A stretch of 64,000 nt of DNA from Minisyncoccota bacterium (GCA_963668425.1 OY764332.1:259903-323902), one strand, 5' to 3'. Positions 2,305 through 59,900 are shown, counted from the first letter of the stretch. The notes: generated by a model not told the origin, from the sequence alone. Made by a program: numbers and translations.

Positions 2305-5300
2305 TTAGTGCCTTTTGTGACTACACCCACCACTTGAGTGGTTGTGTCCGGTACTGCCATAACATGATCCTGACTTCACTCCATCATGCCAATGACAACA
2401 AGAAGAAGGAGAAGAAGATCTACAACTACCACCTGAACAACCGTTAGAGCAGCTTGACGTACTCCATGCCTTTACACATGAGCCACTTCGTGTTGTACAG
2501 TAACACCGTTTAGTGCCGCCGTTATGACACCATGGTGATTGTGAACCGCAACCGCACTCATTGCCGCTACACGAAACAGATCCTCCCCCCGTAGAACACC
2601 CCGAAGTAGTACAAGAGCGAGAAGAAGGTCCTGAAGGAGGAACCACCACAGGAAGCACCGTTACAGGAGCGACTCTGGGTACCTGCGGTAGAGCTGTCAG
2701 AGGTGCTGGAAGTACAACTACAGGAACTCCAACTTCCGTAGGTTCCGTCGACACGGGTGCAAGAAGGTTTACAACTACCATTAGAGCAACCGTTAGGGCA
2801 GTTTGACGTACTCCATGCCTTTACACATGAACCACTTCGTATTCTACAGTAACACTGTTTCGTTTGAGTGCTGGTATTACACCATGGTGATGTGTTACCG
2901 CAACCGCACTCATTGCCGCTACACGAAACAGATCCTCCCCCCGTAGAACACCCCGAAGTAGTACAAGAGCGAGAAGAAGGTCCTGAACAGGAACCACCAC
3001 AGGAAGCACCGTTACAGGAGCGACTCTGGGTACCTGCGGTAGAGCTGTCAGAGGTGCTGGAAGTACAACTACAGGAACTCCAACTTCCGTAGGTTCCGTC
3101 GACACGGGTGCAAGAAGGTTTACAACTACCATTAGAGCAACCGTTAGGGCAGTTTGACGTACTCCATGCCTTTACACATGAACCACTTCGTATTCTACAG
3201 TAACACTGTTTCGTTTGAGTGCTGGTATTACACCATGGTGATGTGTTACCGCAACCGCACTCATTGCCGCTACACGAAACAGATCCTCCCCCCGTAGAAC
3301 ACCCCGAAGTAGTACAAGAGCGAGAAGAAGGTCCTGAACAGGAACCACCACAGGAAGCACCGTTACAGGAGCGACTCTGGGTACCTGCGGTAGAGCTGTC
3401 AGAGGTGCTGGAAGTACAACTACAGGAACTCCAACTTCCGTAGGTTCCGTCGACACGGGTGCAAGAAGGTTTACAACTGCCAGAAGTACACGTCTGTCCG
3501 CTGGGGCATTTGGTGCCGGCGGGGCAGGATTTTTTGCTTCCAGAGCAGTTAATCTCGGAGCAATCTGCCTTTTCTCCTTTTTTGCAGGTAGCAGAAATAG
3601 GAGAATTACAGGAAACAGAGGAAGGACTCGGGCAAGTCCAGGAAGGAGTACGGTATTGACATAATGCAGAGCAAGAATTACTCTTCTTTGTCCAAGAGCC
3701 GTTGTCGCAGGTGTAGGAACAAGAGCCGTTAGAAACGGAACAAGATCCTACTGATTGACCATGACTGGCTGTAGGTAATGAACAATTTGACACTTTTCCC
3801 CCTTGACAAGATGTACGACTGCAACCGCCATTCCGAGACCAAGAGCCGTTGTTGCATGAATATTGACAGGCACCACTATAGCCATCGGCACACGCCAACC
3901 ATTGTGTAGTATTACCATGTTCGACTGCAGGCAAGGGGCAACCTGACACTGTTTTTGCGGGGCAAGATTTTTTTGAGGTTGCGCCAAAACAAGAATTACT
4001 GTTCTTTTTCCAAAGGCCGTTATTATTGCAGGTGTAGGAACAAGAGCCAGTGGAGACACAAGAACCTGCTGATTGACCATATTTGGTTACCGGCAATGCA
4101 CAACCTGTTATTGTTTTGCCCCCGCAAGATGTTTTTACTGAGGATAAACAAGAATTATTGATCTTTATCCAAGAACCGTTATTGCATCTGTAGTTACAAA
4201 AATATACAGGAGCCACAGAAGATTTCTCAATACAACTTCCAGTTTTGCCGTCACCATGTTGTGCTACCCCTAAAGTGCAATTTGACAGTATCTTGGGAGC
4301 ACAGGATGATTGTGCTTTTGAGTCGCAGTGGTACCGTGAGAATTCACATTCTTGACCAGCAGGACAGTGAGAATGTGTGGTACATTCCTTACATAGTACT
4401 CGATTAAGTATGGTCCTATAACATCCGAGGGCACAAGTTTCAACATCTCTTGACTTAACAACAGTACCATTTTTTTTGCAGTTCTGACGGATGTTTCCAT
4501 TATTAGCACAAAAACGACCACCCCAATTTGAGCAAGAAGCGGGACTAGATTTACACGTACCACTTGAACTTGCACAACCGTTAGAGCAGTTTGTCGTAGT
4601 AAACGCCTTTACACACGTATTGTTTTTTTCAACGCAACTACACGATAACGAATTATTACCCTGACAGAATGGTTGTTTTGGTCCACAGTTGCAGTCATTT
4701 TTTCCATCACGGCAATGACGCTCTGGTTTTTTTTCACACTTACCACCCTTACAAGTACCCTCGGAACACTTCGTACCCGTCACGCTTGGTGGAGGACCAC
4801 TACACTGCACGGGGTTACAGTTACTATCTTGTCCAGTGTTACAAGAGGCATAACCTGTCTTACCGCAGTCAATGGAAGATTTTGAAGGGGTGCTCCAAGA
4901 GGCAGGTTTAGAAGGGCAGATTTTGTTTTTTGTACAATCCTTCGTACCCGTCACGCTTGGTGGAGGACCACTACACTGCACGGGGTTACAGTTACTATCT
5001 TGTCCAGTGTTACAAGAGGCATAACCTGTCTTACCGCAGTCAATGGAAGATTTTGAAGGGAGAATCCAAGAGGCAAGTTTAGAAGGGCAGATTTTCTCTT
5101 TTGTACAATCCTTCGTACCCGTCACACTTGGTGAAGAACCACTACACTGCACGGTGTTACAGTTACTATCTTGTCCAGTGTTACAAGAGGCACTACGTGT
5201 CTTACCGCAGTCAATGGAAGATGCCGAAGGGGTGCTCCAATAGGCAGCTCTAGGAGGACAGGATCTACTTGTACAATCTTTCGTACCCGTCACACTTGGT

Positions 5301-7216
5301 GAAGAACCACTACACTGCACGGTGTTACAGTTACTATCTTGTCCAGTGTTACAAGAGGCACTACGTGTCTTACCGCAGTCAATGGAAGATGCCGAAGGTA
5401 GAGCACTCCAAGAGGCAGATCTGGGAGAACAGGATCTACTTCCACAACCCTTCGTACCCGTTACGCTTGGTGAAGAACCACTGCACTGCACGGTGTTACA
5501 GTTACTATCTTGTCCAGTGTTACAAGAGGCACTACGTGTCTTACCGCAGTCAATGGAAGATGCCGAAGGTAGAGCACTCCAAGAGGCAGATCTAGGAGAA
5601 CAGGATCTACTTCCACAACCCTTCGTACCCGTTACGCTTGGCGAAGAACCACCACACTGCACGGTGTTACCACAGCTATCAACACCAGGAATGCAAGATG
5701 CACTCTTAGTAACACCACAGGCAACAGTAGATGCTGCAGGAAGGTCAGTCCAGGAAGGAGTGCGGGGAGTGGTGTTGCAGGCAGGAGTAACAACACAACG
5801 ATCGCCAGAGCATTTTCCACTTGCACACTTCGTACCCGTTACCGTTGGTGAAGAACCACTACACGACAAACCACCACATGAAGGACTTGGGTCATTGCAA
5901 GTTGCCGTCTCTGTAGTACCACAGGCAATGGAAGACGCCGAAGGTAGAGCACTCCACCCTCCATTCACAGGAGAGCAACCTCCCGTAACACAACTCCCCC
6001 CAGAGCATGTTTGCCCTGCGGCGCACGCTGTACCAGTACCAGTACAGGTTCTAGTAGGTCCAGCACCACTACACCCTATAGCAGAACAGGTAGTAGTTAC
6101 TCCAATACGGCAGTTGTCAGAGGCGGTGTTAGGTATAGCAGTACCACAGGCAACAGAAGAAGCACTTGCACAGTCCGGAGCAGGATACCAAGAAGCAGCA
6201 CGGTAGGTACAGGTTAGACTCGGTACAACACTTACGCTACGATACGCAGACCAAGCAGTGCAGGAATGTTTGCCCTGCGGCGCACGCTGTACCTTGTTCT
6301 TGCGCCTGAGACAAACATAGTAGGTACTACCGTTGGTGAGACCACCATAGGACTTGGATCGGGTTGTTTGTGTAGCGTAGGAGCCACCAGCACAGGTACT
6401 GGAGGTGGTAATCTTTGCTTGGTAGTCGTATAAAGCGATGTTGGTGAAACCAAAGTTGGTGGAACCAAAGTCAGCAATCGCTCCAGTGTTTTGTGGGCGT
6501 GTGGAAAAAAGCGATGGCTGTGGTGCAGTAGTGCAGGAGGTAACACAACTCCCCCCAGAGCATGTTTGCCCTGCGGCACATGAGAGGTACTGCGTCTTTT
6601 TGATGACAGATCCTACTCTGCAATAACGAACACGTCTGTTGTTGTCACTGCAAGTGTAGGCATCGTCCCACGTGCAGGGTATGCACCTCTGCTCTGCCTT
6701 GTTACAGAAAGTGGCACCAGAGCAGTGGCTGTCTTGCGTACACTGCACACATCTGCCGATAGCAGTATTACAAGCCGGAGTTGGTACAGCACAGTCACTG
6801 TCACGTTTACAAGGACTGCCAACACACTTAAGCCCCAAAGTGGTCAAAGCAGCAAACTCACCCACACTACAGCAGTCAGCACAGTCGGTGATATAGGTGC
6901 TTGCTCTGTTGGTAAGCGGAAAGCACGAAAGCCCTGTTGGAGTAATCTTTAGAAACTCCCCAGAATTACAGCACTCAGATGGGGTGTCACATTCATTACT
7001 CCATGTGTCAGTCGGTGCGGCGCAGACGATACCTTGGTGGGTGAGTGTGGCATACTCGTCAGTAGCACAGGTTGTCACCACATCAAGAGGGCTTTGACGA
7101 GTGGTCGGCGAGCGTGCCTCTACCGCCACACTTCCGACGAGTAAAGCATGAATAACCATCGCAATAAGCAACGCCGACAGTAGCACAAACCTAGTAGAAA
7201 AAATAAACAAAGGCAT
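2305..7216 (-). CDS. Giant secreted Cys-rich repeat protein (about 1630 aa if continuous) with thrombospondin-type-1-like (TSP1) repeats. An apparent +1 frameshift near 2625-2640 splits it into ORFs 2567..7216 and 2305..2781
   Basis: N-terminal signal peptide (MPLFIFSTRFVLLSALLIAMVIHALLVGSVAVEA). Repeated W-S-x-W-S...C...C-G-x-x-x-x-R/S-x-C modules, for example SWSSCSCTSSTSDSSTAGTQSRSCNGASCGGSCSGPSSRSC. The C-terminal repeat copy differs from the upstream copies by one inserted base, and the sequence continues in the 2305..2781 frame. Confidence 0.7.
2440..3490. repeat. Three tandem 351-bp intragenic repeats inside the giant gene
   Basis: Shadow ORFs 2821..3132 and 3172..3456 are identical. 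The DNA period is 351 bp. Confidence 0.85.
4775..5900. repeat. Six to seven tandem intragenic repeats of about 160-175 bp encoding a repeated 55-57-aa Cys module
   Basis: The motif cttcgtacccgt(c/t)acgcttggtg(g/a)ag recurs at 4775, 4931, 5101, 5279, 5451, 5626 and 5826. Confidence 0.8.
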
Positions 7217-20676: not shown

Positions 20677-20838
20677 GCGCAAGGAATTTGTAAAAAACTC
20701 CTTATTTTATAAGATATTTTACCAAAATTTATTCCTTGTATACTGTAATTGACAAGGAATGCTATTTCCTTGTATATTGCAACTGACAAGGAATACTACT
20801 TCCTTGTATAGTGCAATTGACAAGGAATTATTTTAGGC
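20677..20838. promoter_or_regulatory. Divergent promoter/operator cassette, copy 2 (three TTCCTTGTATA-N-TGACAAGGAA palindromes), between the DUF3800 gene and Fic-2
   Basis: Near-identical to 10804..10930 but with an expanded palindrome array at about 20732, 20766 and 20800. Confidence 0.55.
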
Positions 20839-20888
20839 AGAGATCTATTATACTTTACAAAAAGTAGATATGTTGTATTATCTTGGTT

Positions 20889-21010
20889 TATATTATTAGT
20901 TTTGCTTAAAAGTTGCAATATGAAAATTTATATTATTAGTTTTGCTTAAAAGTTGCAATATGGAAATTTATATTATTAGTTTTGCTTAAAAGTTGCAACA
21001 TGGAAATGTA
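20889..21010. repeat. Three tandem 40-bp repeats (tattattagttttgcttaaaagttgcaatatg(a/g)aaattta)
   Basis: Direct repeats with the block tattattagt at 20891, 20931 and 20971. Confidence 0.8.
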
Positions 21011-21050
21011 TATTGCAAGTATTTATCTAAAATTGTGATATAATAGTACT

Positions 21051-22220
21051 ATGATAAAAACAAGAGAAAAGGGATATGGTGATTTTACGGCAGGAATACA
21101 TAAAAAACACTTTTATAACAAAGAGTATGCATATGAGAGTTTTGTTCCACATTCTGTGAACAGAGAGTATGCTTTTCAAGATTCCAGAATACTTACCCTC
21201 CTTGAAGAGGCGACTAGACATCTTGCGGAATTAAACGCATATTCTGATTTGGTTCCTGATGTTGATTTCTTTATTCAAATGCATGTACGAAATGAGGCGG
21301 TGAAATCAAGTAAAATTGAAGGCACACATACAGACATTAGTGAAGCTGTTCTCTCAGAAAAAGAGATTGAGCCAGAGAAAAGAAATGATTGGCAGGAGGT
21401 TCAAAATTATATAACCGCAATGAATTATGGAATAAAAAAGTTGGAGAAACTGCCTTTGTGTATGCGTCTGTTGTGTGAGACGCATGCAAAGCTGATGCAC
21501 GGTGTTAGAGGGGAGAACAAACAGCCGGGAGAGGTGCGATTAAAGCAGAACTGGATTGGTGGTGTCAGTATTAAAACAGCGTCTTTTATACCACCCCATC
21601 AGGACGATGTCCCCGAACTGTTGAAAGATTTAGAGAAGTTTTGGAATGATAAAAATAATCTTATCATGCCGGATCTGATAAAAGTTGCTATTTCTCATTA
21701 CCAATTTGAAACAATTCATCCGTTTAATGATGGTAACGGCAGGATAGGTCGTATATTAATAGTACTCCATCTTATGCAGATGGGTATATTAAGCAAGCCA
21801 ACGCTTTACCTATCTGATTTCTTTGACAAGCACAAGAGTGCCTACTATGATGCGCTGATGTTTGTAGGAGAGAGAGATGACCTTGATCAATGGATACTCT
21901 TTTTTCTGTCGGGCGTTGTTGAAACTGCAAAAAAAGGAAGAAGTATTTTTCAAGACATTATTGAGTTACGGAGTCAATATGAACAAAAATTGCTTAACCT
22001 TGGCGGTCGCGCGAAAACAGCGAATAAATTACTTCAGTTTTCCTTCTCTCATCCTGCATTTGATACTGTGACAGTATCAGATTACCTTAATATATCACGC
22101 AGTTCAGCAAACATACTTGTGAAACAGATGTCAAGCATGGGCATATTAAAAGAATCAACTGGTTTTTCAAGGAACAGAATCTTTACATTACATCAATATC
22201 TTGACCTGTTTAACACGTAA
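21051..22220 (+). CDS. Fic family protein (HPFNDGNGRIGR) with a C-terminal winged helix. The ATG is only 5 nt after the TGTGATATAAT -10 element, so the mRNA may be leaderless
   Basis: Canonical Fic motif. IEGTHT in the N-terminal domain. Promoter element at 21035..21045. Confidence 0.8.
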   Translation: MIKTREKGYGDFTAGIHKKHFYNKEYAYESFVPHSVNREYAFQDSRILTLLEEATRHLAELNAYSDLVPDVDFFIQMHVRNEAVKSSKIEGTHTDISEAVLSEKEIEPEKRNDWQEVQNYITAMNYGIKKLEKLPLCMRLLCETHAKLMHGVRGENKQPGEVRLKQNWIGGVSIKTASFIPPHQDDVPELLKDLEKFWNDKNNLIMPDLIKVAISHYQFETIHPFNDGNGRIGRILIVLHLMQMGILSKPTLYLSDFFDKHKSAYYDALMFVGERDDLDQWILFFLSGVVETAKKGRSIFQDIIELRSQYEQKLLNLGGRAKTANKLLQFSFSHPAFDTVTVSDYLNISRSSANILVKQMSSMGILKESTGFSRNRIFTLHQYLDLFNT

Positions 22221-36377: not shown

Positions 36378-36428
36378 GTTGCTTGGTAACGGGGTATACT
36401 ACTGATACACTAATGTTGTGGTGTGTGG

Positions 36429-36519
36429 GAGAGGTGGCTGAGCGGTCGAAGGCGCTCCCCTGCTAAGGGAGTAGGGGGTTTAATAGCCCCCTCGAGGGTT
36501 CGAATCCCTCCCTCTCCGC
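36429..36519 (+). tRNA. tRNA-Ser(GCT), long variable arm
   Basis: Hand-folded cloverleaf: acceptor GGAGAGG/CCTCTCC, anticodon loop CUGCUAA, T-loop GGTTCGAATCC, no encoded CCA. Confidence 0.85.
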
Positions 36520-37017
36520 AGGTAAAAATATTGGTTTTTAAAAAAAGAAGAAGAAAGGAGGGGGAGTAGCGTGCATAGTAATGCACGCTACGTTGGGATT
36601 CGAAAGGCGGAGGCGGTCTACGATTTTGCGAAGCAGGGCGAAGCAAAATTGTCGCCGAGCCCGGGCAGGAAGTTCTTAGTGAGCGATAGCGAGCTTAGAA
36701 ACTTGACGCCGAATCCCTCCCTCTCCGCAGGTAAAAAATAGTAGTTTTTAAAAAGGAGAGGGAGTAGTGTGCATAGTAATGCACACTACGTTGGGATTTG
36801 AAAGGCGGAGGCGGTCTACGATTTTGCGAAGCAGGGCGAAGCAAAATTGTCGCCGAGCCCGGGCAGGAAGTTCTTAGTGAGCGATAGCGAGCTTAGAAAC
36901 TTGACGCCGAATCCCTCCCTCTCCGCAGGTAAAAAATATTGGTTTTTAAAAAAGGATGGGGAGTAAGGAGGGGGAGTAGTGTGCATAGTAATGCACGCTA
37001 CGTTGGGATTTGATATA
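36503..37017. repeat. Tandem array (2.5 copies, period 198-209 bp) immediately downstream of tRNA-Ser(GCT); each unit ends with a copy of the tRNA 3' terminal about 27 nt
   Basis: gaatccctccctctccgcaggtaaaaa recurs at 36503, 36712 and 36910. Each unit contains a perfect 9-bp palindrome (agcgtgcat-agtaa-atgcacgct) and an SD-like aaaggaggggga followed by GTG. Confidence 0.85.
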
Positions 37018-40626: not shown

Positions 40627-40644
40627 CAAGATGGGGTTATAGTT

Positions 40645-41090
40645 ATTTTTTACCTGCGGAGAGGGAGGGATTCGGCGTCAAGTTTCTAAGCTCGCTATCG
40701 CTCACTAAGAACTTCCTGCCCGGGCTCGGCGACAATTTTGCTTCGCCCTGCTTCGCAAAATCGTAGACCGCCTCCGCCTTTCGAATCCCAACGTAGCGTG
40801 CATTACTATGCACGCTACTCCCCCTCCTTTCTTCTTCTTTTTTTAAAAACCAATATTTTTACCTGCGGAGAGGGAGGGATTCGGCGTCAAGTTTCTAAGC
40901 TCGCTATCGCTCACTAAGAACTTCCTGCCCGGGCTCGGCGACAATTTTGCTTCGCCCTGCTTCGCAAAATCGTAGACCGCCTCCGCCTTTCGAATCCCAA
41001 CGTAGCGTGCATTACTATGCACGCTACTCCCCCTCCTTTCTTCTTCTTTTTTTAAAAACCAATATTTTTACCTGCGGAGAGGGAGGGATT
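40645..41090. repeat. Inverted copy of the about 209-bp tandem repeat array (2 units), downstream of tRNA-Ser(CGA) on the minus strand
   Basis: The reverse complement of the 36503..36920 units. acctgcggagagggagggattcggcgtcaag recurs at 40652 and 40861. Confidence 0.85.
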
Positions 41091-41165
41091 CGAACCCTCG
41101 ATACGAGTTTGAAATCGTATACCAGTTTTCGAGACCGGCGCTTTCAACCACTCAGCCACCCCTCC
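41075..41165 (-). tRNA. tRNA-Ser(CGA), long variable arm
   Basis: Minus-strand fold: acceptor GGAGGGG/CCTCTCC (one GU pair), anticodon loop CUCGAAA, variable hairpin GATACGA/TCGTATC, T-loop GGTTCGAATCC. Confidence 0.8.
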
Positions 41166-45666: not shown

Positions 45667-45871
45667 CTCTGGAATAATAGATGATGCATCCCTAACAAAC
45701 CTTTTAATCAATAAAAGCACGCCTTTTGAAAGTGTGAGTAAAATTACATCACACAATCTTTCCGCTCCACTCCTATACCAAAAGGTTTTTTGCCTACTAT
45801 GAATTTTAGAATTTTATATAAAACCTGAAAAATGGCAAAGGTTGCGTTTATATTTTAATTTGTATCCTGTC

Positions 45872-47780: not shown

Positions 47781-48086
47781 ATGACCATGTTTAAGAAAAA
47801 AGTACTTGCCATTGTCTCTAGCATTCCGAGAGGATCGGTGATGACGTACAAGGGGGTTGCTATGTTGGCAGGGTCACCAGATGCGGCACGAGCTGTTGGT
47901 CATATTATGGCGAACAACTTTGATCCGTCAGTTCCCTGCCATCGGGTTGTGCGATCTGATGGTAGTGTTGGGGCATATAACCGAGGTGGCATTTCTCAGA
48001 AAAAACAACTTTTACATCGTGAGGGTGTACAGATGGAAAATGATTGTGTCGTTCCCCTATCTATTATAAAAAGTGTTTCTATGTGA
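47781..48086 (+). CDS. MGMT-family protein (O6-alkylguanine-DNA alkyltransferase DNA-binding domain only), 101 aa
   Basis: Motifs YKGVAMLAGSPDAARAVG and PCHRVV (active-site Cys). Confidence 0.7.
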   Translation: MTMFKKKVLAIVSSIPRGSVMTYKGVAMLAGSPDAARAVGHIMANNFDPSVPCHRVVRSDGSVGAYNRGGISQKKQLLHREGVQMENDCVVPLSIIKSVSM

Positions 48087-48560
48087 AACATGTTTCACGT
48101 GAAACGTTTTTTTGACTTTTCTATGTGAAACACTTTGGTCGTTTTAATTGAAAAACCTTGATTTCTTGTATAATAATGTGCTCAGAGTGTTTCACGTGAA
48201 ACGTTTTTGTGCTTTTTTTTGTGAAATGTGTTTCACGTGAAACGTTTTTTTGACTTTTCTATGTGAAACACTTTGGTCATTTTTATTGAAAAACCTTGAT
48301 TTCTTGTATAATAATGTGCTCAGAGTGTTTCACGTGAAACGTTTTTGTGCTTTTTTTGTGAAATGTGTTTCACGTGAAACGTTTTTTTGACTTTTCTATG
48401 TGAAACACTTTGGTCATTTTTATTGAAAAACCTTGATTTCTTGTATAGTAATGTGCTCAGAGTGTTTCACGTGAAACGTTTTTGTGCTTTTTTTTGTGAA
48501 ATGTGTTTCACGTGAAACGTTTTTTTGACTTTTCTATGTGAAACACTTTGCTGTTTTGTT
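48078..48560 (+). promoter_or_regulatory. Tandem array (3.5 units of 138 bp) of promoter/operator modules. Each has an extended -10 (cttgTATAATaatg) and two copies of the palindrome GTTTCACGTGAAAC 41 bp apart
   Basis: The 14-bp palindrome occurs at 48093, 48190, 48231, 48328, 48368, 48465 and 48505. The motif ttgacttttctatgtgaaacactttggtc recurs. The array lies upstream of yraN. Confidence 0.75.
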
Positions 48561-48631
48561 GTATAATCATTATTTGACGTGTATGTCAAATTATGTTTTA
48601 ACTGCTCTCTTTTTCTCATTTAGATTGTATA

Positions 48632-49009
48632 GTGTGTATAACTATGTTTATACTGTGTAAATTTTTTGGAAATATTGGGGAGAAGTATGCTGAAAAGTAT
48701 TTAAAAAGTTGTGGATATACGATTATTGCTAGGCAGTATCATGCAAAATTTGTGGAAATTGATATTTTGGCAAAACGGGGAAATACTCTGTATGTTTTTG
48801 AGGTAAAAAGTGTTTCACATAGAAACAATAGCCATGCGCCATTTCACCCCATTCATCGTGTCAGCCGTCGCAAGATTAAGAAAATGAATATGTTCGCTGA
48901 TTATTATTTGAACAGACATCAGGAATATGCCACTGCCTCGGTTGGGGTTGTTATTGTCTTTCTCGCTGAAGAGTTGTCGCACCCAGAGATTGAGATTATC
49001 TGGCTTTGA
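48632..49009 (+). CDS. yraN: YraN-family (UPF0102) endonuclease-like protein. Probable start at the Met of MFILCKFFGNIGEKY
   Basis: Motifs GEKYAEKYLKSCGYTII...EIDILAKRGNTLYVFEVK match the UPF0102 signature. Confidence 0.7.
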   Translation: MCITMFILCKFFGNIGEKYAEKYLKSCGYTIIARQYHAKFVEIDILAKRGNTLYVFEVKSVSHRNNSHAPFHPIHRVSRRKIKKMNMFADYYLNRHQEYATASVGVVIVFLAEELSHPEIEIIWL

Positions 49010-49067
49010 CCTCAAGTTTGAGGTTTTGGTTTTATGTTACAATTCTTGTTGTGATGGTTTCATCATA

Positions 49068-49143
49068 CGGGGAATGGTGTAACGGCTAACATGCCCGCTT
49101 TGGGAGCGGGTGATTCCGGGTTCGAATCCCGGTTCCCCGACCA
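49068..49143 (+). tRNA. tRNA-Pro(TGG) with encoded CCA
   Basis: Hand fold: acceptor CGGGGAA/TTCCCCG, anticodon stem CCCGC/GCGGG, loop TTTGGGA, T-loop GGTTCGAATCC, 3' ACCA. Confidence 0.85.
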
Positions 49144-49376
49144 CATTACTTTAGATGCCTATTGTATTGTTTGTTGCTGTGGTGTTTTGGTGCTTGACTC
49201 TTCTTGAGAGAGGTTGAGTGTTGGGTGAGGTTGGATATTGTAGGGTGTGTTTCTTGTTGGATGGATGTGTGACTTGCTCATTTATTCGGAGAAGTGAGTT
49301 TTTTATTGTTCGCTTGGATGTGGTCTTGGAGGCGGTGATGCAGGTAGTGGATTTAGTTGTATAGTGTTTTTGTGGA

Positions 49377-49448
49377 CGGAGGGTGATGCAAGGGCACCGC
49401 ACACGATGTAGGTTCGTGTGACTCTGGGTTTAAATCCCGGTTCTCCGA
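49377..49448 (+). ncRNA. tRNA-like element, aberrant (72 nt): acceptor and T-arm good, D-arm weak, 7-bp anticodon-like stem with loop UGUAGGU and G at position 33
   Basis: Acceptor CGGAGGG/TTCTCCG (two GU pairs). T-arm CTGGG-TTTAAAT-CCCGG. Preceded by a 230-nt G+T-rich spacer. Could be a pseudo-tRNA or a non-canonical tRNA. Confidence 0.3.
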
Positions 49449-49891
49449 CGGGCCGGTTTGCACCTTTGTTGTATGTTGGATTTGTTGTTTTTGTGGGTAG
49501 AGATGTTGCTGATATTTGTATGATTACTATTGCTCATCTTACTTCTTTTTAAAGAAAATGGCTGTTATACCAAGGTCTGTTGGTTTAGTGGGTGTAGTAA
49601 TATAATAAAATTGGGTTTTGGCAAGATTTTTATCCCCTTGCCTTTTTCTGAAAAATTGTTGTATTATATATATGTCGCCTGTAGGCGACTGATTATCAAC
49701 TAAACAAAATATTTTATGTTTATCTACAACAACGATAACTCTGGCATGGGTGGCGACGGCATGGAGAAAAAGGATGAGAATGCGTAGTGTATAGATTCGA
49801 CCTACAGAATAGTTTATTCACAAAAGCGAGGCATTATGCTTCGCTTTTGTGTTTTTATTATTTTCTTGATGCGGTATACTGCGTGTGTTCA

Positions 49892-55417: not shown

Positions 55418-55975
55418 TCACACGTCGCCTTCAGTGATTTCTGTGAGTGGCTTTCTTGGTGTTCGCTCTTCTGCTTCGCTCGCCTGTTGTGTTGGTTTGC
55501 CCACTGCTATTGCAGCAAAGATTTCGTACTCATTTTTCTTGATACCTAGCACTTCATATGCCTGCTCTTCATTAAAGCCACCCATTGCATGCGCATTCAG
55601 TCCGATCAGATGTGCTTGTAGCGCAAGTGCCATCCATGCGGACCCTGTGTCAAATGCATAGTGGCGATTTTGTTCACCGGTTTCGCTTAGTGTTCGTTTT
55701 GCTGCGAGGAAAAAAAGTGCTCCTGCGTTTTTTGCCCACTTTTGATTCCCTTCAGCGAGTAAGGTGAGATAGTTTTCTCGTTGCGCTTCTGTTTTTGGGT
55801 AGTAAAATTTCCATGGCTGCTCATTGTAACTGGAGGATGTCCATCGCGCTGCTTCAATGAGTATGTTTATTTGCTCTTGTGTGAGTGGTGCACCATCAAG
55901 GTCGCGACTGCTCCATCGCTCAATAAATTGCTGTGCGACACCTTTTGTGTTTGTTTTTCTCATTACTTTCAGCAT
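55418..55975 (-). CDS. Nitroreductase-family protein
   Basis: N-terminal RWSSRDL..., NEQPW(K/R)F and the general fold signature of the NfsB/NfnB-like family. Confidence 0.7.
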   Translation of the reverse strand: MLKVMRKTNTKGVAQQFIERWSSRDLDGAPLTQEQINILIEAARWTSSSYNEQPWKFYYPKTEAQRENYLTLLAEGNQKWAKNAGALFFLAAKRTLSETGEQNRHYAFDTGSAWMALALQAHLIGLNAHAMGGFNEEQAYEVLGIKKNEYEIFAAIAVGKPTQQASEAEERTPRKPLTEITEGDV

Positions 55976-55984
55976 ATCAGATTT

Positions 55985-56085
55985 TTGTTTCTGTGAAACA
56001 GTGTGGCAATTTTATCCTTTAATAGCAAGAAAAAATTTTCTGTGAAACGTGTGAAACAGTGTTTCACGTGTTTCACAGAGCCATC
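55985..56085. promoter_or_regulatory. Cluster of GTGAAAC/GTTTCAC heptads (ctgtgaaacgtgtgaaacagtgtttcacgtgtttcacag) in the nitroreductase promoter region
   Basis: Same heptad unit as the 48078..48560 array. Overlaps the last codons of pgk. Confidence 0.5.
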
Positions 56086-59768: not shown

Positions 59769-59841
59769 CCACCTGTAGCTCAATTGGTAGAGCACTCGTC
59801 TTATACACGGGCGGTTCCTGGTTCGAGTCCAGGCGGGTGGA
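59769..59841 (+). tRNA. tRNA with anticodon TAT (Ile-UAU type)
   Basis: Hand fold: acceptor CCACCTG/CGGGTGG (C1-G72, one UG pair), D-arm GCTCAATTGGTAGAGC, anticodon stem CTCGT/ACGGG, loop CTTATAC, T-arm CCTGG-TTCGAGT-CCAGG. Confidence 0.7.
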
Positions 59842-59900
59842 CTATGTACTGACGCCCTTCCGTCAGTGTTTTGTTTATTAGAGACAACTCTGATGGTGGA

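Follow-up and report, generated by a model that had tools for sequence, protein, structure and literature searches.

A tandem array of probable chromosomal parS sites near the inferred replication origin of a Candidatus Kaiserbacteria genome

An array of 138-bp repeats lies between a short MGMT-family protein gene and yraN in the window (the whole 64-kb stretch of DNA analysed here), and we conclude with considerable confidence that it is a cluster of seven chromosomal parS (centromere) sites near the replication origin of a Candidatus Kaiserbacteria genome. This conclusion is supported directly by the parS identity of the palindromes, their clustering, their conservation, their variation in copy number and their proximity to a GC-skew minimum. 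What is seen is a well-known kind of element in a lineage not studied before, rather than a novel repressor system. The main value of the analysis is therefore a corrected reading, in which an apparent private operator becomes a universal centromere site.

Architecture of the array and identity of its palindrome

Tandem Repeats Finder and an alignment of the units agree on a 138-bp period present 3.4 times with 97% matches at 48082–48550, in line with the 3.5 copies counted in an earlier sequence-only reading of this DNA. The region is AT-rich (GC 0.36) and contains seven exact copies of the palindrome GTTTCACGTGAAAC (at 48092, 48189, 48230, 48327, 48367, 48464 and 48505), all within 430 bp of one intergenic spacer. 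The chance expectation is 0.01, and seven copies were reached in none of 100 shuffles. Successive sites are spaced by 97 bp alternating with 40–41 bp, so the earlier placement of a second copy 41 bp away was correct. Each full unit comprises two parS sites together with a degenerate parS-like element and a promoter-like -10. The array, its flanking genes and the nearby skew minimum are as follows.

45779, unstranded: cumulative GC-skew minimum, in the spacer upstream of nusA
47781–48086, plus strand: short MGMT-family protein gene (PF01035), upstream flank of the array
48075–48089, unstranded: parS variant GTTTCTATGTGAAAC, one base longer, with a 5-nt centre; overlaps the stop codon of the MGMT-like gene
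48082–48550, unstranded: tandem array, 138-bp unit x3.4, 97% identity
48091–48106, unstranded: parS 1, TGTTTCACGTGAAACG, 15/16 to the consensus, 14-bp core exact
48167–48174, plus strand: extended -10 TGTATAAT of unit 1, promoter-like, not conserved in relatives
48188–48203, unstranded: parS 2, exact palindrome, 15/16
48229–48244, unstranded: parS 3, exact palindrome, 15/16
48326–48341, unstranded: parS 4, exact palindrome, 15/16
48366–48381, unstranded: parS 5, exact palindrome, 15/16
48463–48478, unstranded: parS 6, exact palindrome, 15/16
48504–48519, unstranded: parS 7, exact palindrome, 15/16
48644–49009, plus strand: yraN (UPF0102, PF02021), downstream flank of the array

With their flanks, all seven sites read TGTTTCACGTGAAACG, which occurs in the 64-kb window only in the array and matches the parS consensus TGTTNCACGTGAAACA at 15 of 16 positions and throughout its core (14/14). 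This consensus is near-universal among chromosomal parS sites and is bound by ParB/Spo0J in most bacterial chromosomes (PMC7022226). The heptads GTTTCAC and GTTCCAC are recognized as 'half-parS' sites occupied by Pseudomonas aeruginosa ParB and several other ParB proteins (PMC7022226; primary papers PMC5961200 and PMC10419367). The window holds 37 GTGAAAC/GTTTCAC heptads against 11.6 expected, with 19 in the array, 5 at 55993–56076 and the remaining 13 at about chance level. The GTTTCTATGTGAAAC variant and parS 1 together form a stretch of about 31 nt that is identical in the relative L001.

A single dimeric helix-turn-helix protein that recognizes the half-site GTGAAAC very probably binds the palindrome. 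To this extent we agree with the sequence-only reading, which had proposed one dimeric regulator with this half-site at two loci: the heptads are indeed shared and conserved, but the idea of a dedicated or redox repressor does not hold, because the site is canonical parS at 15 of 16 positions. The comparison with Rex and CRP/FNR operators that it had recommended likewise gave no match. Allowing up to one mismatch per half-site, none of the arrangements TGTGA-N6-TCACA (CRP), TTGAT-N4-ATCAA (FNR) and TTGTGAA-N4-TTCACAA (Rex) occurs in the array or in the heptad cluster at the nitroreductase gene, and neither region matches the cre arrangement at up to three mismatches in total. Rfam has no match in the array region.

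Chromosomal parS sites are usually dispersed over kilobases and do not form a high-identity tandem repeat, and the packing seen here counts against the standard parS reading. Variants with 3-nt or 5-nt centres and a four-heptad palindrome, described below, have a geometry unlike that of a ParB dimer site and could belong to another protein. Genes for ParB (taken as a ParBc N-domain with GERRxRA, plus a helix-turn-helix), ParA or DnaA were not found in the 64-kb window by tblastn, with B. subtilis Spo0J, Soj and DnaA sequences as queries, or by Pfam scans. Across the fetched loci, the only tblastn matches to these proteins were to DnaA, in two Rickettsiaceae loci. We found no literature documenting ParB in CPR/Patescibacteria; the mentions of a 'partitioning protein' in PMC10768705 concern the host and not the CPR bacterium.

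A further palindrome, TTTGAC-N5/6-GTCAAA, lies at 48573–48590 between the parS array and the start of yraN. It is found twice in L001, at ~640–690 (TTGACtttttGTCAA), and may be a separate operator of yraN.

Conservation in relatives and the nitroreductase promoter

Seven related loci (L161–L168), found through PGK and LysRS homologues and with PGK 78–98% identical, share the gene order pgk, nitroreductase, yrdC, HIT, CCA enzyme, LysRS, yraN, spacer, MGMT and carboxypeptidase. Every locus that reaches the yraN–MGMT spacer has a parS cluster there and none elsewhere in ~21 kb.

L162: 6 parS-like sites in the MGMT–yraN spacer
L163: 7 parS-like sites in the MGMT–yraN spacer
L164: 8 parS-like sites in the MGMT–yraN spacer, all perfect
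L165: 6 parS-like sites in the MGMT–yraN spacer
L166: 10 parS-like sites in the MGMT–yraN spacer
L167: 4 parS-like sites in the MGMT–yraN spacer
L168: 8 parS-like sites in the MGMT–yraN spacer

The repeat periods of these loci differ (218, 162, 181, 183, 116 and 138 bp) and the DNA between the parS sites is not alignable across species. From L162 to L168, parS is thus kept at the orthologous locus while its surroundings drift, which argues that the parS sites are the part kept by selection. The arrangement extends to distant Paceibacteria: in L025, the AT-rich spacer upstream of yraN contains seven sites that deviate from the parS consensus by at most one base, with one additional degenerate copy recognized by eye, and L023 has one perfect parS and half-sites beside yraN.

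Copy number varies, a point that the earlier reading had proposed checking. L168 belongs to the same species as the window (98.6% nucleotide identity over >10 kb of flanks) and carries the 138-bp unit 4.3 times at 99% identity, with eight parS sites, compared with 3.4 copies and seven sites in the window. Because L168 is an independent assembly with the same unit, the array is not an artefact of the window assembly, and the collapse to a single unit that the sequence-only reading had entertained is not borne out. Between L166 (MKWU01000458.1) and L167 (JAPOOC010000010.1), whose sequences agree at 99.995% over 20.5 kb, the parS array differs by two 183-bp units; either the locus is truly polymorphic or one assembly has collapsed the repeat. 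Their comparison also revealed an 83-bp segment present at two nearby positions (~14960 and ~15086).

The promoter-like element shows a different pattern. In the units of the window it takes the form TTGAAA-N15-TGTATAAT, with the palindrome beginning 14 nt past the -10; TGTATAAT is exact at 48305 in unit 2, reads TGTATAGT at 48442 in unit 3 and has a fourth exact copy at 48560, just beyond the repeat. The earlier description of a -10 in each unit 'immediately' followed by the palindrome was therefore right about the nearness of the element, but a 14-nt gap separates the two and unit 3 departs from the motif. Neither L001 nor L162 has TGTATAAT in its orthologous spacer, and in L168, from the same species, all four units read TGTATAGT while parS is perfect. 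Since TGTATAAT is not conserved and parS is kept, the amplified module is a centromere unit and not the promoter-plus-operator module that had been proposed, and the promoter-like -10 was probably just carried along when the parS sites were duplicated.

The heptad cluster that the sequence-only reading had placed in front of the nitroreductase gene is present there and conserved, and comprises the following features.

55418–55963, minus strand: nitroreductase gene; likely true start at the second ATG, 55963, as in relatives (181 aa)
55971–55979, minus strand: conserved extended -10 TGnTATxCT (TGATATGCT) of the nitroreductase gene
55987–55999, unstranded: parS variant GTTTCTGTGAAAC, one base shorter, with a 3-nt centre; adjoins the nitroreductase extended -10
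56041–56077, unstranded: four half-parS heptads forming a 37-bp palindrome, TGTGAAACG TGTGAAACA G TGTTTCACG TGTTTCACA

The four-heptad palindrome lies ~80–115 bp upstream of the nitroreductase start and is kept in all relatives (the seven related loci reaching it). Its inter-heptad dinucleotides covary symmetrically (AC/AC, CT/AG, GC/GC), and as a single strand it folds at -21 to -25 kcal/mol. Direct 9-bp heptad repeats are found in this cluster and in L001. The 3-nt-centre variant, (C/T)GTTTCACAGAAACA, has a core that is invariant in 6/6 aligned sequences; it abuts the extended -10 in 6/6 species and occupies the -35/spacer region of the promoter. Only 7 nt separate the extended -10 from the ATG that relatives use, which makes the nitroreductase mRNA look leaderless or near-leaderless. 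Measured centre to centre, the four-heptad palindrome and the 3-nt-centre variant are 65–66 bp apart in five species and 55 bp apart in one. The difference amounts to one helical turn, which favours DNA-bound proteins over an RNA hairpin.

We also considered the four-heptad palindrome as a terminator of pgk and dropped this reading: L166 and L167 have an insertion of ~500 bp after pgk, and the element stays with nitroreductase. A T-run following the palindrome is not conserved in the relatives.

Both loci could in principle be explained by a dedicated repressor, a GTGAAAC-binding dimer that represses the triplicated promoters of the array and the nitroreductase promoter 7.5 kb away, but we consider this unlikely. 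Such a repressor would fit the good promoter-like element of each unit, 14 nt upstream of the palindrome, and the invariant GTTTCACAGAAACA directly upstream of the nitroreductase extended -10, with four heptads at a near-constant distance upstream of it (65–66 bp, or 55 bp in one species). However, the palindrome matches parS; the spacings of CRP, Rex, FNR and cre sites do not fit; the -10 is absent in L001 and L162 and reads TGTATAGT throughout L168, with parS perfect; and none of the relatives has a regulator gene linked to the locus. As a ParB that represses nearby promoters is known (PMC5521831), the repressor explanation largely collapses into the parS explanation.

On the parS reading, the heptads in front of the nitroreductase gene represent half-parS sites that ParB, by analogy with other systems, may occupy too, which would lead either to local regulation or to bridging with the main complex 7.5 kb away. 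A precedent for the former is the ParB-dependent repression of promoters next to parS3 and parS4 of P. aeruginosa, as described in PMC5521831. The conserved half-parS layout at a promoter is a lead on extra ParB roles.

The inferred origin and the link to yraN

The GC-skew minimum at 45779 lies 2.3 kb from the array. To its left the skew is -0.05 to -0.26 and to its right +0.08 to +0.24, independent of gene strand; a change in this direction, from negative to positive, marks replication origins, not termini. In the JAPOOC relative (a merged contig), the skew minimum falls in the same spacer upstream of nusA, with parS 9 kb away. Judged by GC skew alone over 64 kb, the array is origin-proximal, and it marks this region in an uncultured CPR genome. 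The window also encodes trigger factor, pyrophosphatase, NusA, a VanY/S11 carboxypeptidase, class-I LysRS, the CCA-adding enzyme, HIT, YrdC, the nitroreductase, Pgk and Tpi. Among the genomes of the species collection, a Candidatus Kaiserbacteria MAG is the nearest match (NusA 89% identical), which assigns the window to a CPR/Patescibacteria bacterium.

Proximity to the skew minimum, together with the AT-rich sequence and the direct 9-bp heptad repeats of the nitroreductase cluster and L001, would also suit an element of the origin itself, in which the 9-mers TGTGAAAC(A/G) act as lineage-specific DnaA boxes or iterons in an AT-rich repeat of oriC. We regard this as very improbable. The motif matches TTATCCACA at 6/9 positions, compared with 15/16 for parS; the sites are palindromic pairs and not asymmetric boxes; the skew minimum falls outside the array, by 2.3 kb in the window and 9 kb in the JAPOOC relative; and no dnaA lies nearby. 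At up to one mismatch, no DnaA box (TTATCCACA) is present inside the array, and the 22 such boxes in the whole window include four scattered over 48633–49814. The candidate variant DnaA box TGTGAAACA was dropped, as the full 16-mer is parS and there is no TTATCCACA cluster.

It is similarly hard to credit that the units are tandem small-RNA or terminator modules, in each of which a promoter precedes a small hairpin and a run of T. GTTTTT(T/G) does follow every palindrome, and one context folds to -9.4 kcal/mol, but the hairpin itself has 5 bp with two G–C pairs and in the other contexts reaches -3.8 to -5.2 kcal/mol. The palindromes were not called by a terminator scan and have no Rfam match, T-runs and promoter are not conserved in relatives, and variation falls in the spacers without compensatory changes in the stems. 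A functionless minisatellite or an assembly artefact, for which one could cite the 97% likeness of the copies, their total length of ~470 bp (longer than a short read) and the possibility that L167 is a collapsed L166, is exceedingly unlikely given the same 138-bp unit with one more copy in the independent same-species assembly L168 and the parS clusters found at the corresponding position of seven related loci, as well as in distant Paceibacteria.

The association with yraN extends beyond the spacer. In the window, a 5-nt-centre variant, GTTTCACATAGAAAC, lies within yraN itself (48812–48826), just past an EVK motif, and variants of this kind are conserved both at the 3' end of the MGMT gene and within yraN. 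A metagenome scan with a YraN alignment, reduced to one very general peptide pattern, had distant homologues among the matches listed. Among these listed matches, 29 of 88 yraN loci (including L081–L160) contain parS-like 16-mers, nearly always inside yraN or in the ~100 bp upstream of it. With up to two mismatches allowed, there are 78 such 16-mers in the 906 kb of these 88 listed loci, against ~0.2 by chance on our own estimate; none lies more than 5 kb from yraN, and they are sharply concentrated in two intervals counted from the yraN start, -100 to 0 with 17 sites and +100 to +200 with 16, the latter peak lying ~150 bp into the gene.

The intragenic peak corresponds, among the matches listed, to a YraN subfamily with an EVK-x-VSRE motif, and in 12 of the 17 listed genes with this motif V-S-R-E is written as exactly GTT TCA CGT GAA, the parS core, which is one codon combination in 288. 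This bias suggests selection on the DNA and not on the protein. Again among the matches listed, long distant loci with parS near yraN have a skew minimum within ~1–2 kb, whereas those without parS show a monotonic skew. We found no literature linking yraN/UPF0102 with parS, and their linkage is a lead on the function of YraN. A more speculative possibility, which we regard as doubtful, is that in Kaiserbacteria and many small-genome relatives the centromere is a fast-evolving tandem 'satellite' anchored at yraN, with its half-site grammar co-opted at the nitroreductase promoter in the form of 3- and 5-nt-centre variants and the helically phased four-heptad palindrome. If so, ParB would double as a sequence-specific regulator, or the YraN nuclease would be tied to the partition complex.

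Several other features of the window were noted. Inverted repeats at 36492–37013 and 40644–41101, 100% complementary over 246 nt, flank a 3.7-kb segment with a 938-aa low-complexity open reading frame (ORF) and a tRNA-Arg; each arm is a ~200-bp tandem duplication starting in the 3' end of a tRNA-Ser (36427–36519, plus strand; 41074–41165, minus strand). It may be an invertible segment, an insertion or an error of assembly. A 1549-aa minus-strand ORF (2567–7216) contains long in-frame tandem repeats at 2412–3482 (351 bp x3.1, 96%) and 4765–5670 (171 bp x5.3, 92%), which probably encode the repeated domains of a surface protein. The AT-rich spacer just upstream of a Fic-family gene (21051–22220) has two short tandem arrays at 20732–21014, one of 34-bp units (x2.9) and one of 40-bp units (x3.2 at 96%). 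The neighbourhood of this gene also includes DUF3800, a zeta-toxin gene and another Fic gene, and its GC skew is reversed, suggesting an island of toxin or defence genes. Finally, a tRNA-Ile at 59769–59842 has the anticodon TAT (UAU), an uncommon one among bacteria, which mostly decode AUA with a modified CAU anticodon instead.

Proposed mechanism and comparison with known systems

What we infer about ParB draws on ParABS systems elsewhere. By analogy with these, a ParB dimer would engage each 16-bp palindrome through its two helix-turn-helix motifs, one for each half-site. It would bind CTP and shut into a clamp that slides away over neighbouring DNA, and the partition complex built in this way would load SMC and be moved by ParA, so that newly copied origins separate. 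A tandem 138-bp unit with two parS sites would provide more loading sites. The array most likely arose through unequal recombination or slippage between repeats, and its copy number is still changing. The Kaiserbacteria arrays form a natural series of 4–10 sites with periods of 116–218 bp and copy numbers that differ between near-identical strains, and could reveal how bacterial centromeres expand and turn over.

The chromosome of B. subtilis has ten parS sites, eight of them in the ori domain, with the consensus TGTTNCACGTGAAACA. The window resembles this parS/ParB (Spo0J) system in its 16-bp palindrome (15/16), the multiple copies, their position near the inferred origin and their conservation in related genomes. 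Unlike those of B. subtilis, which are scattered over tens of kilobases, the sites in the window are packed into 430 bp of tandem repeat; they are also not adjacent to parAB, and the ParB of the array is putative. Tandem organization has a counterpart in sopC of the F plasmid, which consists of 43-bp repeats, each with a SopB-binding inverted repeat, whose copy number is dispensable and variable. Like sopC, the array is a tandem repeat of a unit with a palindromic site for a ParB-family protein (putative in the window), but sopC is on a plasmid and has an unrelated site sequence, a shorter unit and one site per unit.

Other origin-proximal clusters are the 22 parS sites near ori in Myxococcus xanthus (PMC3899335) and the parS1–4 cluster near oriC in P. 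aeruginosa (PMC4368675). As in these species, in which one site suffices and the others are redundant, parS in the window is concentrated near the (here inferred) origin; the M. xanthus and P. aeruginosa clusters, however, are not reported as recent tandem duplications with strain-level differences in copy number. In P. aeruginosa, ParB on the intergenic sites parS3 and parS4, which lie before genes, can silence those genes (PMC5521831). The window likewise has intergenic parS sites with a putative ParB, but the promoter-like elements of its array are not conserved. The nitroreductase cluster shares with the half-parS sites of Pseudomonas the identical heptad GTTTCAC, also found outside full parS (PMC7022226, PMC5961200 and PMC10419367). 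Whereas Pseudomonas has hundreds of scattered single heptads, the four heptads here together make up a conserved palindrome of 37 bp, helically phased with the shortened parS site that overlies a promoter.
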